Below, in pieces: positions 35,224 to 40,026 of a stretch of DNA of 64,000 nt (its first letter is position 1; the number at the start of each line of letters is the position of its first letter). This stretch comes from Staphylococcus phage vB_SscM-1. The notes under the pieces were generated by a model. It did not search any database. It worked only from the letters and a program-made list of their open reading frames with translations, and was not told the DNA's origin. A program made the position numbers and the translations under genes. The stretch is taken from sequence record NC_047767.1. One strand, given 5' to 3'.

Positions 35224-36105
35224 TTACATAACTTTAGTAATAATTAATCGTTCATGCCATACCCAAAGATTTGAGTCTTTTGAATAAATTCTAGCCCAAC
35301 CATCTTTAACTTCGTAAACATGGAAATTAGGTGTACCTGCTTTATAAACTAGGTTAGTCTTTTGATACTTACTACCTACTTTTTTACACACTGTAATTCC
35401 TGCACTATCAGCTTTAGCAATAAATTGTTTAGAACTTTTATGAGCTAAAGTTTTAGGTGCTTTTTGTCCTACTTTAAGTTTACTAGTTGTTTTCTTAGTC
35501 TTAGGCTTAGTTGTTTTCTTAGCCGGTGCTTTTGTAGAGCCTCCAATAGATTTACCATGGATACCTTCTGCAATCTTCTTAGTAAATGATTGTAGGTTTT
35601 TCTTAATATAGTTCATGTCACCACTATTAGTAATAAATCCTAGTTCTACTAAACGGTAGTTAATATTAATTTGACCTGCAACATTACAATTTAATAAATC
35701 GTTACGTTTAGTTACACCTCTAATAACTCCTACTGTATCTTTAAGTGCTTTTTGAATACCATTATCAATACTATCTGCTGGATAAGCACTAGGTATAATA
35801 ACATGTCCTCCACTTGCACTTGGACTAGCACTATCTAAATGGAACTCAACTACAACTTTATATCCTTGAGATTTAACCCAATATAATCCGTAGTCTTTAG
35901 TATTACCTAATTTTTGACCATAAGCTGTATCTTGGTACATGTCTTGTGACTTACCGTAAATAGCAACAGTATGCCCTGCTTGCTTAAGATACTTAGCTAC
36001 ATTATCGACAATATTGTTTCTAATGAAATCTCTCTCATTTGTACCATTTCCGACTGCTCCAGGGTCGTTATATCCGTGACCTGCTACTAACATAATTTTA
36101 GTCAT
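35224..36105 (-). CDS. Endolysin: N-acetylmuramoyl-L-alanine amidase (Amidase_3) plus SH3b-like binding repeat
   Basis: MLVAGHGYNDPGAVG..; C-terminus ..GWARIYSKDSNLWVWHERLIITKV shared with the CHAP lysin. Confidence 0.8.
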   Translation of the reverse strand: MTKIMLVAGHGYNDPGAVGNGTNERDFIRNNIVDNVAKYLKQAGHTVAIYGKSQDMYQDTAYGQKLGNTKDYGLYWVKSQGYKVVVEFHLDSASPSASGGHVIIPSAYPADSIDNGIQKALKDTVGVIRGVTKRNDLLNCNVAGQININYRLVELGFITNSGDMNYIKKNLQSFTKKIAEGIHGKSIGGSTKAPAKKTTKPKTKKTTSKLKVGQKAPKTLAHKSSKQFIAKADSAGITVCKKVGSKYQKTNLVYKAGTPNFHVYEVKDGWARIYSKDSNLWVWHERLIITKVM

Positions 36106-36170
36106 TAAAAAATCACCTTTCTGTTATAATTTGTACTACATCTAATATAACAGAAAGGTGATTTATAATT

Positions 36171-36365
36171 TTATTTATTTCTTGATGATAAACTTTCTAG
36201 TTTCTTAATAATTTGAGATGCTGTTTTATTATCTACTGACTCTAAAGTTGTTTCTGGTAAAAGTTCAATTGCATCCCAAACTTCTTGTTTATTACTAAAT
36301 TTTTCATTAACAATAACATTACCAATTAATGATTCCATATAGTAAACTTGTTTATTAGTTGCCAT
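36171..36365 (-). CDS. Hypothetical protein (64 aa; start moved to MATNKQ)
   Basis: RBS AAGGAG then 9 nt then ATG at 36365. Confidence 0.45.
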   Translation of the reverse strand: MATNKQVYYMESLIGNVIVNEKFSNKQEVWDAIELLPETTLESVDNKTASQIIKKLESLSSRNK

Positions 36366-37732
36366 TCCATAAAACTCCTTTTTTATTATATGTATAACCA
36401 CGGACGTCAACGTGGCTTTAAACTTCGGTTTCCATCATCGTAATAACTTCCACCTCAATACTCCGCAGAGTAGACATAGCTATGTAAAGTATATAACTAG
36501 CATCTCTTCCTAGGAGAACACGCTTGCGTTATATACTCAATGAAACTCTACCCTCATTCGAGGAAACAGCAAACCGATTCGTCAATCGCACATGTTAATT
36601 CTCAAGTTTCATTTATGTATAACTCCCTCTAACCTGTAACTTGGGAGCGTGGTAATTTACCATACGTACAAATTCCAGTTTTACATATTCAGGTACTAGT
36701 AAATATTTCAACTAGTTTGTGAAGTACGCTACCTTGAACTCATAAACTCCAATAGCTAAATAAGTTGTTTTTACTGAGGACATTTTTATTATGTATATAC
36801 CCTAGTGGTTAACTAGGGAGTTACTAAGGAACCACCTTAGCAAGTGGATATCTACAAACGTTGGCTAACTCGATACCTGCTACGAGTACTCCTAATATTT
36901 AAAAATAGCGTTAGGCACGCCCACGACCTTCGTAACGTTTTGTTTAGTAAGCTTGTTTATTCTATCAAATAAGTTTATAAATTGTACTTGGTCTGATACA
37001 ATAGTTTACTTACCTATGTATCCCCCTGGGCAATTAAACGCAGGAGGCAGTTCTTATGCCTATCACTTATAAGAAAACCTAAAACCATTATAAGCTGGAC
37101 TTTTGAAGATTGGTTTATTTTGTTCACGCATACGTAAAAACTTACCACTATCCATGGTTGATAAATTCTTACGCCCAGTATCATAGGGTTAGTTGAACAG
37201 GGACAAGTTATGGAACTAACTTGCGATAAAAGAGTTTTGTAGTTTATGTATGGCTAGTTATTTTTTATGTAGGACGAACTAGCAAAACTACATATCATCA
37301 TATAACCAGTAACTTCAGATGATAATAAAGTTTTTTTACAACTGGTTCATTTATGTATTGCCTACTCCTCGTAAGGTGGTAAGCTGAATTAATATATTAT
37401 GTATACTAGGATTGTACCAGTAAACTTCCTAGTGTTATCTTCCCATCTTGCACAGGAGACCTCGAGATTATCAGTCCCTTTAAATAGTTTTTTTCCTATG
37501 CCTATTACTAGATAGTAAGGATTGATTAATTCCAAACGTTACCCTCAATCTTTGGGTTAGCTCACAATATTTGAGTATGACACAGACTGGTTCGTGGATG
37601 ATTACCTCAATTCTATATATGTAACCTTGCACCTTGAACCCATAAACTCAGGTGCACCTAAAGCCGGCTAAGGAGTTTGGGTGACTTGGGGACATAGCAT
37701 TACCTCTTTTTTTGTTAGGACTATGTATATAG

Positions 37733-37797
37733 AAGTGCAAGGGATTCGAACCCTTAGACTTAGCCTGCCTCCGGACACGCCGACTAGACACTTCTAT
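37733..37797 (-). other. tRNA-like minihelix: perfect T-arm (AAGGG-TTCGAAT-CCCTT) and 7-bp acceptor stem, but no D or anticodon arms
   Basis: Reverse complement TAGAAGTGTCTAGTCGGCGTGTCCGGAGGCAGGCTAAGTCTAAGGGTTCGAATCCCTTGCACTTCT folded by hand. Confidence 0.35.
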
Positions 37798-38833
37798 TAT
37801 GATACCTACACTCAACTTAGTGCTTACACTTAAGATAGCCTAAGGTTTACAAATGTTTAGTTTATATGCATTTCAGCATTTGGCACGGTATCCTACCTTT
37901 TCCCTTCATTTTCTTAAGACAAATGCTATAACCTCACGATTATAGAGACTGTGTTTAAGCACACAGTTAAGCTACTATTGTAATTTCATTATACCATATT
38001 ACTTGTTGTTTGTCAACTTCTTTTTTGTATTAAAAAAGTACACCTAGGAAACCTATACCATAATCTTATAGTGTACTGTGGTTTTTTATCTTAGGCTCGA
38101 AGCAACTCGGTACCTAAGAAAGGAAAATATGTATTTCTAGCAGGAAGTTTAGAAAGGATGTTGATATACCAATGTATAACGCTTTAATTAGAGAGGAGTT
38201 AACTTCCTGCTAGACATTATCAGTAAAGGAGTTTTAAGTCTGATAATATGTTTATGTTATTAAAAGAGGAATGATTCTGTTGTATTCTGATTAATACAAC
38301 TAAATATCCAAGCATAGCCCTTCTCAGGGGGAACTACCCAGTAAGAAACAGTATTAGACGACCTAGTGTAAGAAGATTCTATACGGTTGCAAGTCGTAGT
38401 CCATCTTTTACAGCAAAGAGCAATATAGGGGTTAGGTCTTTTACTAACCAACTTTCACACGATATGAAGAATTATAGTAAATTTCTATTTTAGCCTACAT
38501 ATCAAATTTGTTTTGTAATGTGGATTTGTGCTACTTGTACAGGTAACTTTCATTATCAAAACTATTTCTAGTCTCCAACCACATCAGAACTTTAAAGCGT
38601 AGTTTAAAAAGTTTCCGCTAAGAACTCCTTAAACGATTATTCCTGACTGTTACCTTGTCCTATATCCCTTACAGAGTAGTACCAAGCATTCCCCTCGTAT
38701 TAAAAAATACTCTAAGGTAAATGTCTGAGTTCTCACGCAGATTTATTACCTGTGACAATCTTGTACGTTACTCCTATCAGAGAGTTATTCCGTCACTATG
38801 CTTAGATATTTAGTTGTATTATCTTGTATATAT

Positions 38834-38862
38834 AATATAGCATACTTTTAATTCTTTGTCAA
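38834..38862 (-). promoter_or_regulatory. Promoter TTGACA-N17-TATATT inside the ORF-free region
   Basis: Counted on the reverse complement. Confidence 0.5.
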
Positions 38863-39041
38863 GTTCATTTTCAAATTATTTTAAATATGTATGTAGGATT
38901 CCACTATTAATCCTACATGTTTAATTATTTTAAGTGGTTTGATATAAGTTTTAAACTTATAAGAAAAATTGTTATTGTTTATACTGGAAAACAATTTTAT
39001 AAAAACAGTTGTGTAAGGGGTTTTAATTTGTTTGTAAATAC

Positions 39042-39070
39042 ATTATACCATATAATTCTACCCTTGTCAA
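39042..39070 (-). promoter_or_regulatory. Consensus promoter TTGACA-N17-TATAAT firing into the ORF-free region
   Basis: Reverse complement TTGACAagggtagaattatatggTATAAT. Confidence 0.6.
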
Positions 39071-39088
39071 GTTTATTTTAAACTTTTT

Positions 39089-39304
39089 TTATTCTCCTGA
39101 TAATTCTTCTTGTAATTTATCCCAATATTTCTCCGCTTCACTACGATTATCTTCTACGTGCTTAGTTACTTTTCCACATTTGACACAATATAAATCTTTA
39201 ATATGCCCTTCTTCTCTTTTTCTACTTCTCTTACGTGGTACCATAAATACTGAACCACATTCTTTACAGTTTAATTTTGAATAAGTCATTGCTTGTCTTT
39301 TCAT
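39089..39304 (-). CDS. Zinc-ribbon protein (71 aa; CxxC..CxxC)
   Basis: CKECG..CVKCG; RBS AAAAGGA then 9 nt then ATG at 39304. Confidence 0.5.
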   Translation of the reverse strand: MKRQAMTYSKLNCKECGSVFMVPRKRSRKREEGHIKDLYCVKCGKVTKHVEDNRSEAEKYWDKLQEELSGE

Positions 39305-39342
39305 TTTTATCATATCCTTTTCTTGTTTTATTTGTTAATTGT

Positions 39343-39640
39343 ATTATATCATAAATAAAAGTATAAGTCAACAAGTATTTAATATTTTTATTCCTGAGTA
39401 AACTTATAAATTTAATTTATAACTGTATTATACTATATCCTGAGTAATAAGTCAACAGATTATACTAAATTTTTTATATTCTGAGTAAATTAAAAAGTAA
39501 AATCCTTTTATATCAAGGGTTTCAAGCTCTAAATTTTATGTTTAGAAAATAAGGAGTACTCCTAATATATAATACTATATCTATTATAAATAAATAAAAG
39601 AACTTAAATATAAATATATAAATAATAGAGTTAAAGTCAA
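39343..39640 (-). promoter_or_regulatory. Three tandem minus-strand promoters (TTGACT-N17-TATAAT at 39343-39371 and 39427-39455; TTGACT-N16-TATATT at 39613-39640)
   Basis: Each counted on the reverse complement. Confidence 0.55.
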
Positions 39641-39790
39641 CAACTTAATTATTACTAAGTTATCTGAATATTCAATTAACTTTATGTTTAGAAAATAAGA
39701 AACCTTCTAATATATATTACTATATATTTATAATTAAATAAAAGAACTTAAATATAAATATATAAATAATAGAGTTGGAAAAATCAGCAA
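39530..39790. repeat. Two copies of a roughly 110-bp AT-rich direct repeat (..TTATGTTTAGAAAATAAG..AAATAAAAGAACTTAAATATAAATATATAAATAATAGAGTT)
   Basis: Aligned by eye, about 85 % identical; only two copies and no spacer structure, so not CRISPR. Confidence 0.55.
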
Positions 39791-39815
39791 CAAAAAAGTG
39801 ACTTACAAAAAGTCA
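39787..39815 (-). terminator. Terminator AAGTGACTT..AAGTCACTT plus T-run (minus strand)
   Basis: Reverse complement read directly. Confidence 0.55.
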
Positions 39816-39816
39816 C

Positions 39817-40026
39817 TTAGAAAAATAGTTTATAGGATTCAATCATTCGGGTATTTACATATACAGAAGCAGAGTCTATACTGCTTTCAGTAAATACTTT
39901 TACAGTAGGAGTACTAGCTCCACTAATTAGATAATCAATATCTCTGTGTTTAATTGGTTCTTCCTCAGTAGAAACTAAGAAATACTTAGCTCCACTAATC
40001 ATAGTTAGTTCTACATGTTTAATCAT
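39817..40026 (-). CDS. Hypothetical protein (69 aa)
   Basis: ORF track. Confidence 0.45.
   Translation of the reverse strand: MIKHVELTMISGAKYFLVSTEEEPIKHRDIDYLISGASTPTVKVFTESSIDSASVYVNTRMIESYKLFF

Follow-up and report, generated by a model that had tools for sequence, protein, structure and literature searches.

A stretch of the Twort-like Staphylococcus/Mammaliicoccus phage vB_SscM-1 at 36411-39088, between a Zn-ribbon gene and the lysis module, is probably an island of separate non-coding RNA units, all read leftward from the minus strand; we hold this identity and anatomy, taken as a whole, with good confidence. The window analysed is a stretch of 64,000 nucleotides (NC_047767.1), within which the gap begins, in the minus-strand direction, after the Zn-ribbon gene, whose stop is at 39089, and extends to about 36371, where the first lysis-module ORF starts. 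Leftward, the units are promoter P1 with a leader of ~150 nt, promoter P2 with a 530-nt RNA, a CU-rich spacer, promoter P3 with about ten cassettes, and an element of ~140 nt, here called Element G. The 530-nt unit is almost certainly a structured non-coding RNA orthologous to Kayvirus lncRNA2 (also lnc002), and it joins an already known but uncharacterised kind of RNA. A first-pass annotation had read the region as a highly expressed large non-coding RNA or a set of them. What emerges is a set of non-coding units that includes one large RNA, of 530 nt and with very strong covariation, and the expression part of that reading stands in so far as this RNA is the ortholog of an abundant Kayvirus transcript. 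In vB_SscM-1 itself, the promoter matches and the orthology with Kayvirus suggest that the island is expressed.

Our ORF scan agrees with the earlier claim that 36411-39088 holds no ORF above 63 aa, as the longest one overlapping it in any frame has 63 aa (38260-38451, minus strand, TTG start). The region had also been called less AT-rich than its flanks. GC content is 0.33-0.41 over 36400-38800, and the claim is correct against the right side (0.17-0.30) and the immediate left (0.27) but not against the lysin genes at 34-35 kb (0.32-0.38). All four hairpins named earlier are present, although the coordinates of two had been wrong by 9-13 nt: they lie at 36488-36537 (AGTATATAAC/GTTATATACT, conserved and covarying in relatives), 36800-36818 (CCCTAGT/ACTAGGG), 38090-38118 (CTTAGG/CCTAAG) and 38216-38247 (ATTATCAG/CTGATAAT). 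The term "hairpin-dense" fits some units, the 530-nt RNA having an MFE z of -4.25 and five more units about -2, but it fails for cassettes B, C, E, X and Y (z ~0).

Promoters and leader unit

Three consensus sigma-A promoters stand within the region on the minus strand, and their modules form one 60-nt repeat family. P1 (39042..39070; TTGACA-17-TATAAT with a TG extension; 12/12) lies just past the Zn-ribbon gene, and in alignment its position is kept in Twort, Sepunavirus, Kayvirus, EW13, 184DA and Stab23. P2 (38834..38862; TTGACA-17-TATATT; 11/12) is directly upstream of the 530-nt RNA and aligns with the promoter preceding lncRNA2 in K, Twort, EW13, 184DA and Stab23; Sepunavirus and Baoshanvirus are without it and have a hairpin in its place. 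The third promoter, P3 (37988..38016; TTGACA-17-TATAAT with a TG extension; 12/12), had been overlooked in the first-pass annotation. It heads the cassette array, and the block containing it (38094-37973) is 89% identical to one that heads a cassette and tRNA array in PG-2021_14 and PMS3. Further minus-strand matches at 39371-39343 and 39455-39427 (11/12 each) and at 39640-39613 (10/12) complete the set of sigma-A promoters claimed earlier, all of which were found, with scores of 10/12 to 12/12. The seven best promoter matches are all on the minus strand, while promoter-like sites overall are not enriched (28 vs 22.5 +/- 4.9 in shuffles).

Downstream of P1 is a leader or sRNA unit (38880..39035, minus strand; MFE z = -2.05) with a cross-genus core of ~75 nt (…CCTTACACA…CTGTTTTT…TTGTTTTCCAGTATAAACAATAACAAT). 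Its terminal hairpin occupies 38927-38882, with AUACAUAUUU coming next, and phage K has an annotated terminator at the equivalent place.

The 530-nt RNA and its orthologs

The large structured RNA (38292..38821, minus strand) folds into ~19 helices. Its ends are joined by the 26-bp closing helix H1 (38821-38796 with 38317-38292), seen in the DNA as a 26-nt inverted repeat (38292-38317 / 38796-38821; 96% complementary) that the first-pass annotation did not list. The 23-bp long-range helix H9/H10 pairs 38680-38657 with 38359-38333, and the fold further contains a GAAA-tetraloop hairpin (38574-38559), a covarying pseudoknot (38583-38579 with 38523-38519) and a variable A-rich linker (38518-38472). 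A covariation check on the syntenic regions of relatives had been proposed, and covarying structure was found: in an alignment of 18 sequences, which represent five or six independent lineages only and in which many compensatory cells were inherited together, 77 of the 131 consensus pairs carry compensatory changes. Cells are paired at 97.4%, compared with 38-41% in controls with slid 3' partners, a comparison that is flattered by predicting the structure from the tested alignment itself but whose margin is very large. The covariation score is 0.551 vs ~0.07, and none of 500 shuffles attains the observed values. The vB_SscM-1 copy forms 125 of the 131 consensus pairs.

Searching with nhmmer and a query of 621 positions, we obtained full-length matches (starting at ~2-70 and ending at 545-608) in Twort, Sepunavirus, Kayvirus, Baoshanvirus, EW13, Stab23 and 184DA, with E-values from 1e-24 to 1e-64 (Twort 8e-64; BE25 1e-59; K 3e-38; Baoshanvirus 1e-24 to 1e-27); in the profile search the vB_SscM-1 stretch scores 462 bits. 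The RNA is single-copy in each phage, is present in five or six Twortvirinae lineages, all of them from Staphylococcus and Mammaliicoccus, and in every genus is flanked by the Zn-ribbon gene (phrog_1257) and the holin/endolysin module. The PG-2021_14/PMS3 lineage is without it, indicating that the RNA is dispensable in at least some Twortvirinae.

The match in 515A1 (37952-38589) encloses the published lncRNA2 interval of 38,000-38,525 (PMC7698491), and that in phage K (38001-38638) the published 38,024-38,566 (PMC11598898). Described by RNA-seq only, lncRNA2/lnc002 ranks with the most abundant transcripts of phage K and 515A1, and the Kayvirus tRNAs downstream of it are far scarcer, with no terminator between (PMC7698491, PMC9241854, PMC11598898). 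It makes up 8.4% of CPM in 515A1 (PMC7698491), and lncRNA1 and lncRNA2 jointly account for 27% of phage K reads (PMC11598898; also PMC9241854). These abundances are those of Kayvirus only, the vB_SscM-1 copy being known here from sequence. The Kayvirus and vB_SscM-1 RNAs are homologous over their whole length, with 125-130 of the 131 consensus pairs kept in both, and share the strand, a location with the Zn-ribbon gene on one side and the lysis module on the other, a consensus sigma-A promoter of their own immediately upstream and the absence of a terminator downstream. However, their identity is only ~62%, and the vB_SscM-1 copy has neither of two insertions seen in relatives, a 36-nt hairpin in K and Zeno and one of ~45 nt in Stab23 and PSU4. 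Whereas in Kayvirus lncRNA2 is followed by ~310 nt and three tRNA genes, in vB_SscM-1 a different tail, the third promoter and ~1.4 kb of cassettes without tRNAs follow.

That tail is the CU-rich spacer (38020..38291, minus strand; MFE z = -2.33), which is conserved in Sciuriunavirus only. In it, 38217-38201 pairs with 38149-38133 as a 17-bp hairpin, after which comes AAUACAUA, and a second hairpin lies at 38118-38090. Seven UCCU motifs, which are anti-Shine-Dalgarno-like, give it a density of 25.7/kb vs 4.8/kb over the whole window. UCCU is likewise enriched downstream of lncRNA2 in Kayvirus-like phages, in sequences that cannot be aligned with the spacer.

ROOL and GOLLD had been named earlier as comparable large RNAs. 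In a scan with all 4227 families of Rfam 15, neither ROOL (RF03087) nor GOLLD (RF01998) matched at the gathering score, nor at E <= 10 over 36000-39800, and neither model matched the K, Twort, BE25 and JDF86 loci at E <= 1. We therefore rejected membership of either family for the 530-nt RNA, there being no covariance-model match at any threshold tried and no Rfam family that matches even at E <= 10. For RNase P RNA, tmRNA, 6S RNA, group I/II introns and known small ribozymes, the scan returned chance-level hits only. There is nonetheless a likeness to ROOL and GOLLD in context and behaviour: they too are phage-encoded RNAs of 0.5-0.8 kb beside tRNA islands, reach rRNA-like abundance, fold into many helices with a pseudoknot, contain an internal linker of poor conservation, and have no known protein partner or function (PMC12286853, PMC9241854). 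The helix layout of the lncRNA2 family differs, and cage self-assembly is the defining structural result for ROOL and GOLLD; for the lncRNA2 family, the one hint in that direction is that a palindromic hairpin loop occurs in three of four lineages.

The cassette array and its tRNA-like fold

The array consists of about ten short cassettes, each of which closes with a hairpin followed 0-3 nt on by AUACAUA. ATACATA occurs ten times on the minus strand of the gap, every copy preceded by a hairpin, and has no plus-strand copy there; the 64 kb as a whole contain 19 minus-strand copies. Related arrays have the same strand bias. The blocks are sharp-edged and recur, reshuffled, in unrelated Mammaliicoccus and Staphylococcus phages, with 80-97% identity and in each case at the head of a same-strand tRNA array; they vary in order even among Sciuriunavirus genomes that are >90% identical in shared blocks. 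We read the hairpin-AUACAUA junction as a processing and/or recombination mark, and put the chance that the cassettes are processed into separate RNAs at about even.

All cassettes lie on the minus strand. Cassette A (37797..37974; 178 nt; MFE z = -2.05) has a counterpart with 94-97% identity in phi116, an unrelated Mammaliicoccus phage of 134 kb, in which the block stands upstream of tRNA-Asn, drum RNA, tRNA-Tyr and tRNA-Pro, and it also occurs in ZCSS1, PG-2021_31 and MSShimriz1. Segment X (37612..37730; MFE z = +0.9), for which no homolog was found, contains the hairpin GCACCU-GAGUUUAUGGGUUCA-AGGUGC at 37655-37625. This hairpin is one of two copies of a repeat in the first-pass annotation, whose module ACCTTGAACYCATAAACTC we likewise find at 36731-36749 and 37631-37649. 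Cassette B (37395..37611; ~215 nt) ends in the hairpin CUAGGA-AGUUUACUGGUACAA-UCCUAG, then UAUACAUAA; blocks 82-86% identical to it occur in PG-2021_14 and in two Sextaecvirus siphoviruses, vB-SscS-F1 and PG-2021_4, and in every case a tRNA array begins just downstream. Segment F (37213..37394) is a mosaic of short shared pieces, including 37345-37292, with three AUACAUA junctions, and its hairpin loop GAAGUUACUGGUUAUA recurs in phage K lncRNA1 (22-nt match, E = 0.011). The most widely shared is cassette C (37015..37212; ~198 nt; MFE z = -0.7), which is 83-90% identical to ten homologs, found in Sciuriunavirus, in PG-2021_14/PMS3 and in four phages of the Sextaecvirus type; four of its 38 predicted pairs covary, at a divergence too small for this purpose. 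Cassette D (36788..37011) has two pieces, 37009-36951 and 36943-36788, and ends in the hairpin CCCUAGU-UAACC-ACUAGGG, then UAUAUACAUAA; PG-2021_14 and PG-2021_31 match it at 95-100% identity, and DH5 at 85%. Segment Y (36715..36787), common only to MSShimriz1 (97%), carries the second copy of the GAGUUUAUGAGUUCA-loop hairpin at 36755-36725, whose stem is different and is still predicted to pair. Cassette E (36612..36714; ~103 nt) ends in the hairpin CUCCC-AAGUUACAGGUUAGA-GGGAG, then UUAUACAUAA, and has counterparts in Sextaecvirus-type phages at 80-90% identity. Five of the units (B, C, E, X and Y) are no more stable than shuffled sequence and too similar across phages for a covariation test, and for these only strand-specific features suggest a role as RNAs and not merely as conserved DNA.

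ARAGORN reported no tRNA gene in the 64-kb window, and the tRNA model (RF00005) had no match at E <= 10 over 36000-39800; ARAGORN and the Rfam models recovered every tRNA in the related loci. The earlier remark that only one tRNA-like fragment is detectable here is thus accurate. It is a truncated, 65-nt fold at 37731..37795 (minus strand; MFE z = -2.27), which scores 17.6 bits with the tRNA-Sec model vs a threshold of 47 and has no homolog in any locus compared. Like a tRNA, it has an acceptor-type stem of 7-10 bp and a canonical, perfect T arm (AAGGG-UUCGAAU-CCCUU) with the GGUUCGAAUCC loop. Unlike a tRNA, it is ~10 nt too short, is rejected by ARAGORN and the Rfam tRNA model, and has no anticodon arm, one short central hairpin with a 4-nt loop replacing the D and anticodon arms.

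As short non-coding elements associated with tRNA arrays, the cassettes resemble drum RNA (RF02958) and the T4 species 1 and 2 RNAs, which are co-oriented and interleaved with phage tRNA arrays. The phi116 array that has cassette A also holds a bona fide drum RNA (77 bits). In vB_SscM-1, however, no cassette matches drum or another Rfam family, and there are no tRNAs. To our knowledge, neither a hairpin with an AUACAUA junction nor the shuffling of cassettes between phages has been described for drum or the T4 species 1 and 2 RNAs.

Alternative readings of the gap

One alternative is a giant RNA, a single transcript of ~2.7 kb spanning the whole gap, either of the ROOL/GOLLD type or a distant member. 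Such an RNA would suit a phage-borne, promoter-driven region by the lysis genes, where relatives keep tRNAs, and one group has annotated the whole 1154-nt intergenic stretch of phage K as lnc002 (PMC9241854). We consider it very improbable all the same. The gap is split by a terminator-like hairpin and by two internal consensus promoters, at 38862-38834 and 38016-37988; 530 nt only are conserved across genera while the remainder is lineage-specific or mosaic, the ROOL and GOLLD models fail to match even at E <= 10, and the coverage peak spans 525-543 nt in two RNA-seq studies (PMC7698491, PMC11598898). That the gap instead holds pseudogenised or mis-annotated coding sequence, as protein-gene remnants or small ORFs, is scarcely credible. 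In the homologous region of MSShimriz1, BE25, JS1 and others, automatic annotation has placed "hypothetical protein" ORFs (30-55 aa) on either strand, but these ORFs differ in position, strand and frame between relatives. Variable columns have no codon periodicity in the large RNA (112/133/118) or in cassette C (25/24/22), and neither has a conserved ORF; the longest stop-free stretches change frame from phage to phage. Indels are many and mostly 1-2 nt in the large RNA and 1-2 nt long in cassette C. The helices, for their part, stay paired via double substitutions, and Kayvirus lncRNA2 was described as non-coding in three RNA-seq studies (PMC7698491, PMC9241854, PMC11598898).

A decayed tRNA array, made up mostly of mutated tRNA genes and spacers that are now functionless, had also been proposed. 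Kayvirus, Stab23 and 184DA hold one to three tRNAs in the gap, Element G comes after tRNA-Trp in Kayvirus, the cassettes adjoin tRNA arrays in other phages, and there is the tRNA-like fold at 37731-37795. The association with tRNA arrays is the part of this proposal that stands; the cassettes have no detectable tRNA ancestry, as none matches tRNA models even at E <= 10, their lengths are 100-215 nt and not 73-90 nt, and the largest unit of the gap is a conserved structured RNA unrelated to tRNA. Because they keep 80-97% identity in unrelated phages beside intact tRNAs, we take them to be separate conserved elements rather than tRNA debris, and find decay of an array improbable. It could alternatively be that the cassette half (37990-36612) is mainly a DNA recombination hot spot, in which promoter modules and hairpin-ATACATA repeats promote illegitimate or homologous exchange between co-infecting phages and the blocks are passengers with no RNA role. 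Block order that varies among near-identical genomes, sharp edges at a repeated motif, unremarkable folding energy in several cassettes and little covariation are all in its favor. Long invariant stretches inside cassette C, however, persist in three phage groups that otherwise share little, which argues for selection on the block itself. The junction motif is also strand-strict, directly follows a hairpin and is co-oriented with tRNA genes, suggesting a role at the RNA level, and a consensus promoter is retained before the array in two genera. We find it unlikely that recombination is the main explanation.

Proposed mode of action and the boundary with the lysis module

Starting from an island of separate non-coding RNA units, we infer its maturation and functions as follows. 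Host sigma-A RNA polymerase would read it leftward, on the minus strand, from three consensus early-type promoters, so that the 530-nt RNA would be made from early infection onward. As it has no terminator of its own, this RNA is probably excised from read-through transcripts, by cutting or by trimming as far as the terminal helix. A compact fold with closed ends should protect it from host exonucleases and might thereby allow it to accumulate to rRNA-like levels. By analogy with ROOL and GOLLD, we tentatively propose that it acts stoichiometrically, the folded particle serving as a scaffold, sponge or cage, and would act neither as an mRNA nor as an antisense regulator.

P3 would drive the array of about ten short non-coding cassettes. 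A bolder idea, and a long shot, is that the Twortvirinae lncRNA2 family joins ROOL and GOLLD as a third class, independent of both, of "ornate" phage RNAs that self-assemble, and that the cassettes form a pool, shuffled horizontally, of small RNAs acting as decoys or against defence systems, freed by an endoribonuclease that reads the junction. The hairpin-AUACAUA junction contains UACAU, the pentad at which the staphylococcal toxin MazF and the Bacillus toxin EndoA cleave.

Element G (36481..36622, minus strand; MFE z = -2.2) is a structured non-coding RNA, consisting of a three-way junction closed by a 10-bp helix and a long hairpin of ~22 bp, which is the AGTATATAAC/GTTATATACT hairpin of the first-pass annotation. 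Compensatory changes occur at 12 of its 48 predicted pairs among six sequences. It is 84-89% identical to Kayvirus and 184DA, the flanking genes being at ~68%, and in Kayvirus it has tRNA-Trp on one side and the first gene of the lysis module on the other. In its long hairpin, the 3' strand appears to resemble the -10 box of the Kayvirus late-promoter consensus, TGTTATATTA (PMC7698491). Element G would divide the island from the lysis operon, probably halting early read-through and overlapping a late promoter. Beyond it, a Sciuriunavirus-specific leader (36372..36480, minus strand) precedes the ribosome-binding site of the first lysis-module ORF and contains the hairpin CCACG…CGUGG, followed by UUAUACAUAUAAU.

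The ORF-free gap and its 530-nt RNA

The gap at 36411-39088 has the same flanking genes in all Twort-like genera examined: a Zn-ribbon gene on one side (39313-39089, 74 aa; phrog_1257), and a small ORF followed by the holin and endolysin genes on the other. The best matches to 36100-39400 come from Sciuriunavirus phages (Herelleviridae, Twortvirinae; ZCSS1, UHP46, PG-2021_31/33/76, and MSShimriz1) at 92-97% identity, spanning just 67-74% of that query. The first-pass annotation had read the gap as expressing a large ncRNA, or a set of them, at a high level. This core reading was right, and the locus is real and worthwhile. The gap indeed contains no ORF above 63 aa in any frame, and neither a tRNA (ARAGORN) nor an Rfam match at gathering score was found in it. 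The four hairpins and the repeated 19-mer named earlier are present, although their coordinates had been slightly off. Consistent with the promoters proposed there, all seven of the best sigma-70-type matches within 35800-40000 lie on the minus strand, among them a 12/12 match at 38016-37988 (P3) that had not been listed. The gap was also said to be less AT-rich than its flanks. Its GC is above that of the right flank but not clearly above that of the lysin genes.

The most informative repeat had been overlooked. Two 26-nt arms, 38796-38821 and 38292-38317, are 96% complementary, and the former starts just downstream of the promoter at 38862-38834 (P2). They bound the large RNA, 38821-38292 on the minus strand, whose 530 nt replace the size estimated earlier, which was wrong. 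Whole-length homology extends to DNA in 276 phage records, all Staphylococcus or Mammaliicoccus Twortvirinae. The matching interval in vB_SauM-515A1, 37952-38589, spans all of the "lncRNA2 region" as published (38,000-38,525); that in phage K, 38001-38638, spans lncRNA2 (38,024-38,566) and falls within lnc002 (37679-38832). Three independent RNA-seq studies place lncRNA2 on the same strand, transcribed from an early promoter of its own; its share is 8.4% of CPM in 515A1, and lncRNA1 and lncRNA2 jointly contribute 27% of phage K reads, while the tRNAs downstream are far scarcer without an intervening terminator (PMC7698491, PMC9241854, PMC11598898). Neither structure nor function is given in these papers, and a review notes a contextual resemblance to ROOL and GOLLD, nothing further (PMC10383478). 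We conclude with high confidence that the large RNA is a structured ncRNA orthologous to lncRNA2. The existence and abundance of lncRNA2 in Kayvirus is already published. Relative to the searchable literature, what appears to be new is its conservation across all staphylococcal Twortvirinae genera, its covariation-supported architecture, and its absence from Rfam.

Fold, distribution, and possible role of the large RNA

An RNAalifold consensus was computed from an 18-sequence alignment. It has 131 pairs, 77 of them with compensatory double changes, and 97.4% of cells are paired, versus 38-41% in controls with the 3' partners shifted by 1-3 columns, where just 10-21 pairs show double changes. 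The covariation score is 0.551 versus ~0.07, and none of 500 shuffles reached the observed values. The window copy keeps 125 of the 131 pairs, with a folding energy 4.25 SD below shuffles. A closing helix of 24-26 bp (H1) joins the ends. Inside it, a 5' domain of seven helices and a second long-range helix of 23 bp (H9/H10) are found, the latter surrounding a domain with an invariant GAAA tetraloop hairpin and a pseudoknot. The five pseudoknot pairs (38583-38579 with 38523-38519), identified by scanning for further covarying stacks, supersede a non-covarying helix of the RNAalifold prediction. Toward the 3' end, a set of small hairpins follows an A-rich linker that varies in both length and sequence. 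In most lineages, helix H17 has a loop (38394-38382) that is self-complementary and centered on an invariant GC: UUGCAA in the window, CUAGCUA in Sepunavirus, and AGCU in both Kayvirus and Baoshanvirus, with the Twort loop (UCGCU) not palindromic. Judged from the loop sequence, it may be a kissing-loop site for self-association, a lead only, which three of four lineages fit and Twort does not.

A protein-coding reading is ruled out by the absence of codon periodicity and of any conserved reading frame in the large RNA, where indels are mostly of 1-2 nt. Kinship with ROOL or GOLLD, suggested by the first-pass annotation, was not found either. The scan of the window and seven related loci, including those of K, Twort, BE25, and JDF86, covered all 4227 Rfam families, both at gathering score and with relaxed E-values, and neither the large RNA nor the cassettes described below had a match. 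ROOL, GOLLD, OLE, raiA, RNase P, tmRNA, 6S RNA, introns, and ribozymes all failed to match in the window and in the K, Twort, BE25, and JDF86 loci; the sole Rfam matches overall were genuine tRNAs and one drum RNA, in relatives. In the records of MSShimriz1, BE25, Quidividi, JS1, 184DA, and phi116, the homologous non-coding regions carry "hypothetical proteins" from automatic annotation, 30-55 aa long and spread over both strands. Such calls differ between relatives, are not conserved, and are almost certainly spurious.

Homologs were taken from Twort, Sepunavirus, Kayvirus, Baoshanvirus, EW13, Stab23, 184DA, IMG/VR, and metagenomes. They group into five or six lineages, with between-lineage identity of 55-70%. 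By nhmmer profile, each phage has exactly one copy, with no second copy or paralog in the rest of the window. Scans that required an exact 19-base pattern, which distant relatives could escape, yielded chance matches alone among 185,579 bacterial genomes (one per species; none profile-confirmed) and three true matches in metagenomes, all phage-like and within known lineages. Nothing in the window is homologous to phage K lncRNA1, apart from a 22-nt hairpin-loop match in segment F of the cassette array, and lncRNA1 and lncRNA2 are not detectably similar. The large RNA is missing from one Twortvirinae lineage that infects Mammaliicoccus (PG-2021_14 and PMS3). In its place, between the Zn-ribbon gene and the cassette and tRNA array, is a 524-aa DUF2828/DUF7788 protein (L046 4276-5850 in PG-2021_14, L052 1-1228 in PMS3; phrog_850, "RNA-binding protein"). 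At this one locus, it seems, an RNA-binding protein has taken the place of an RNA. The protein has no sequence relative in the PDB and no homolog in the window; a Ro60/TROVE-like identity is possible.

The comparisons establish the anatomy and orthology of the large RNA, and the folds and non-coding nature of both this RNA and element G (described below). A working model covers its transcription, maturation, and mode of action. Judging from the orthologs, host polymerase would transcribe the island strongly, early, and continuingly. The RNA lacks a terminator, yet in phage K it far outnumbers its downstream neighbors, so it is probably cut out of a longer transcript or trimmed back to its terminal helix. 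Its compact fold, with both ends enclosed in a long duplex, would be expected to make it persist. It could then act stoichiometrically as an RNA particle, whether scaffold, sponge, or cage, a role consistent with its rRNA-like abundance and with its tetraloops, pseudoknot, and disordered internal linker. We offer this abundant structural or sequestering particle only as a tentative model. A similar RNA-particle picture is now emerging for ROOL and GOLLD (PMC12286853). The palindromic H17 loop hints weakly at self-pairing.

Phage therapy against Staphylococcus relies mainly on Twort-like staphylococcal phages, K, ISP, Sb-1, and 812 among them. By RNA-seq, one of the commonest phage transcripts in infected cells is an RNA whose fold has so far not been described in the searchable literature, and it is conserved well beyond Kayvirus, in Twortvirus, Sepunavirus, Baoshanvirus, and Sciuriunavirus. 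What had been a "coverage peak" becomes a defined RNA with helices, pseudoknot, and loops open to mutation, purification, and imaging. It is a natural candidate for asking whether cage formation, as in ROOL and GOLLD, extends to phage RNAs beside tRNA islands in general.

A mosaic array of small cassettes

Leftward of P3, comparison with the closest relatives shows blocks that are present, absent, or reordered. We compared 37990-36612 with three related loci (L001, L003, and L049). The order is A-tl-X-B-F-C-D-Y-E in the window (tl being a tRNA-like fold), A-D'-F-C in ZCSS1, and F-A-D'-Y-C in MSShimriz1, and Sciuriunavirus genomes with differing orders are >90% identical in shared blocks. The array is the most plastic spot of an otherwise collinear neighborhood. 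Unrelated phages also carry blocks at 80-97% identity: phi116 (134 kb), the Sextaecvirus siphoviruses vB-SscS-F1, PG-2021_4, DH5, and TPWB06 (90 kb), and PG-2021_14 and PMS3. In each of these, the cassettes lie immediately upstream of a same-strand tRNA array; PG-2021_14, for example, has a P3-like promoter followed by B, C, D, tRNA-Thr, tRNA-Ser, and tRNA-Ser. In phi116, a cassette A homolog shares its array with a clear drum RNA (Rfam RF02958; L044 2764-2881, 77 bits against a threshold of 43) between tRNA-Tyr and tRNA-Asn, unannotated in the record. Tentatively, the array suggests that phages of one host group swap small non-coding RNA genes as they do tRNA genes. The mosaic array with its junction motif likewise appears to be new relative to the searchable literature.

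The alternative of a decayed tRNA array was not borne out. ARAGORN found no tRNA in the window or its Sciuriunavirus relatives. In the sole tRNA-like piece of the array, 37731-37795, an acceptor-type stem is combined with a perfect T arm and the anticodon arm is missing; no homolog of this piece was found. Folding energy is modestly low (z about -2) for this fold, cassette A, and the tail that follows the large RNA, and unremarkable versus shuffles for B, C, E, X, and Y. Ten homologs of cassette C show long invariant runs, frame-breaking indels, and no periodicity, with divergence too small for a real covariation test. Hairpins at 37655-37625, 36755-36725, 37437-37403, 36652-36622, and 37327-37297 combine unrelated 5-7-bp stems with similar 14-18-nt loops ((G)AGUUUAYGRGUUCA, AGUUUACUGGUACAA, AAGUUACAGGUUAGA, and AAGUUACUGGUUAUA), one of which is also in phage K lncRNA1 (L048). 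The degenerate pattern AGTTWAYNRGTWMWR matched exactly only its three source copies, and with one mismatch allowed, 12 matches were found against 11 expected. The loop similarity is therefore an impression that we do not count as evidence.

Nearly every non-coding block ends in a hairpin followed by AUACAUA, and block edges coincide with the motif. In the gap, ATACATA occurs ten times on the minus strand (36395, 36620, 36796, 37021, 37251, 37358, 37404, 37728, 38134, and 38892) and never on the plus strand, out of 19 minus-strand copies in the whole 64-kb window, and all copies in the gap lie 0-3 nt past the 3' strand of a hairpin. Related arrays (L045, L047, and L049-L051) show the same strand bias. 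The PG-2021_4 array (L047) has the motif after its last tRNA as well, and a near-variant, UUUUACAUAA, follows tRNA-Trp in phage K. AUACAUA contains UACAU, the pentad at which S. aureus MazF and B. subtilis EndoA are reported to cut. Counts of 0-3 UACAU sites per lncRNA2 homolog are uninformative about depletion. We see an even chance that cassettes are processed into separate small RNAs at these junctions; the hairpin-AUACAUA element could equally well be a recombination junction.

Element G, the tail, and the upstream unit

Element G (36622-36481), the last 140 nt before the lysis module, is 84-89% identical to Kayvirus and 184DA sequence after tRNA-Trp; the neighboring genes are just ~68% identical. 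It is non-coding and folds into a three-way junction and a long hairpin, with 12 of 48 pairs compensatory among six sequences. The long hairpin is the AGTATATAAC/GTTATATACT pairing noticed earlier, which gains covariation support. In Kayvirus, element G reaches the ribosome-binding site of the first lysis-module gene, and the lysis operon depends on a late promoter, pL74, with the consensus -10 box TGTTATATTA (PMC7698491). The 3' strand of the long hairpin, UAGYUAUAUAC, is similar to the pL74 -10 box. We infer that element G would end early transcription from the RNA island and overlap the late promoter.

The 270-nt tail between the large RNA and P3 (38291-38020) is conserved within the genus only. 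On the RNA strand (minus), UCCU motifs reach 25.7/kb versus 4.8/kb window-wide; CUCCUUU-type motifs are also present, and AGGA is nearly missing. Kayvirus-like tails (phage K, L006 3648-3960) cannot be aligned with the window tail but share its UCCU enrichment, which is four- to fivefold in the window and in Kayvirus. The phage K tail includes UCACCUCCUUUCAC, which matches the 16S rRNA 3' end (anti-Shine-Dalgarno sequence). The UCCU motifs may base-pair with ribosome-binding sites; alternatively, they may be what is left of mini-ORFs on the opposite strand.

At the other end, promoter P1 (39070-39042) and a ~75-nt core are conserved across nearly all genera. In the window and Kayvirus, this unit closes with a hairpin, annotated as a terminator in K, and P2 follows. 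Because P2 is absent in Sepunavirus and Baoshanvirus, their large RNA must come from P1. Farther upstream, 39330-39800 is the AT-richest stretch of the neighborhood (GC 0.17-0.24), and the "three tandem promoters" of the first-pass annotation fall inside it. It contains a tandem direct repeat of ~145 nt (39532-39632 and 39678-39776, sub-blocks 91-98% identical) and the shorter repeats CTGAGTAA and AAGTCAACA. In phage K, the corresponding gp191-gp190 interval was reported to be the sole untranscribed locus and put forward as the origin of replication (PMC9241854).
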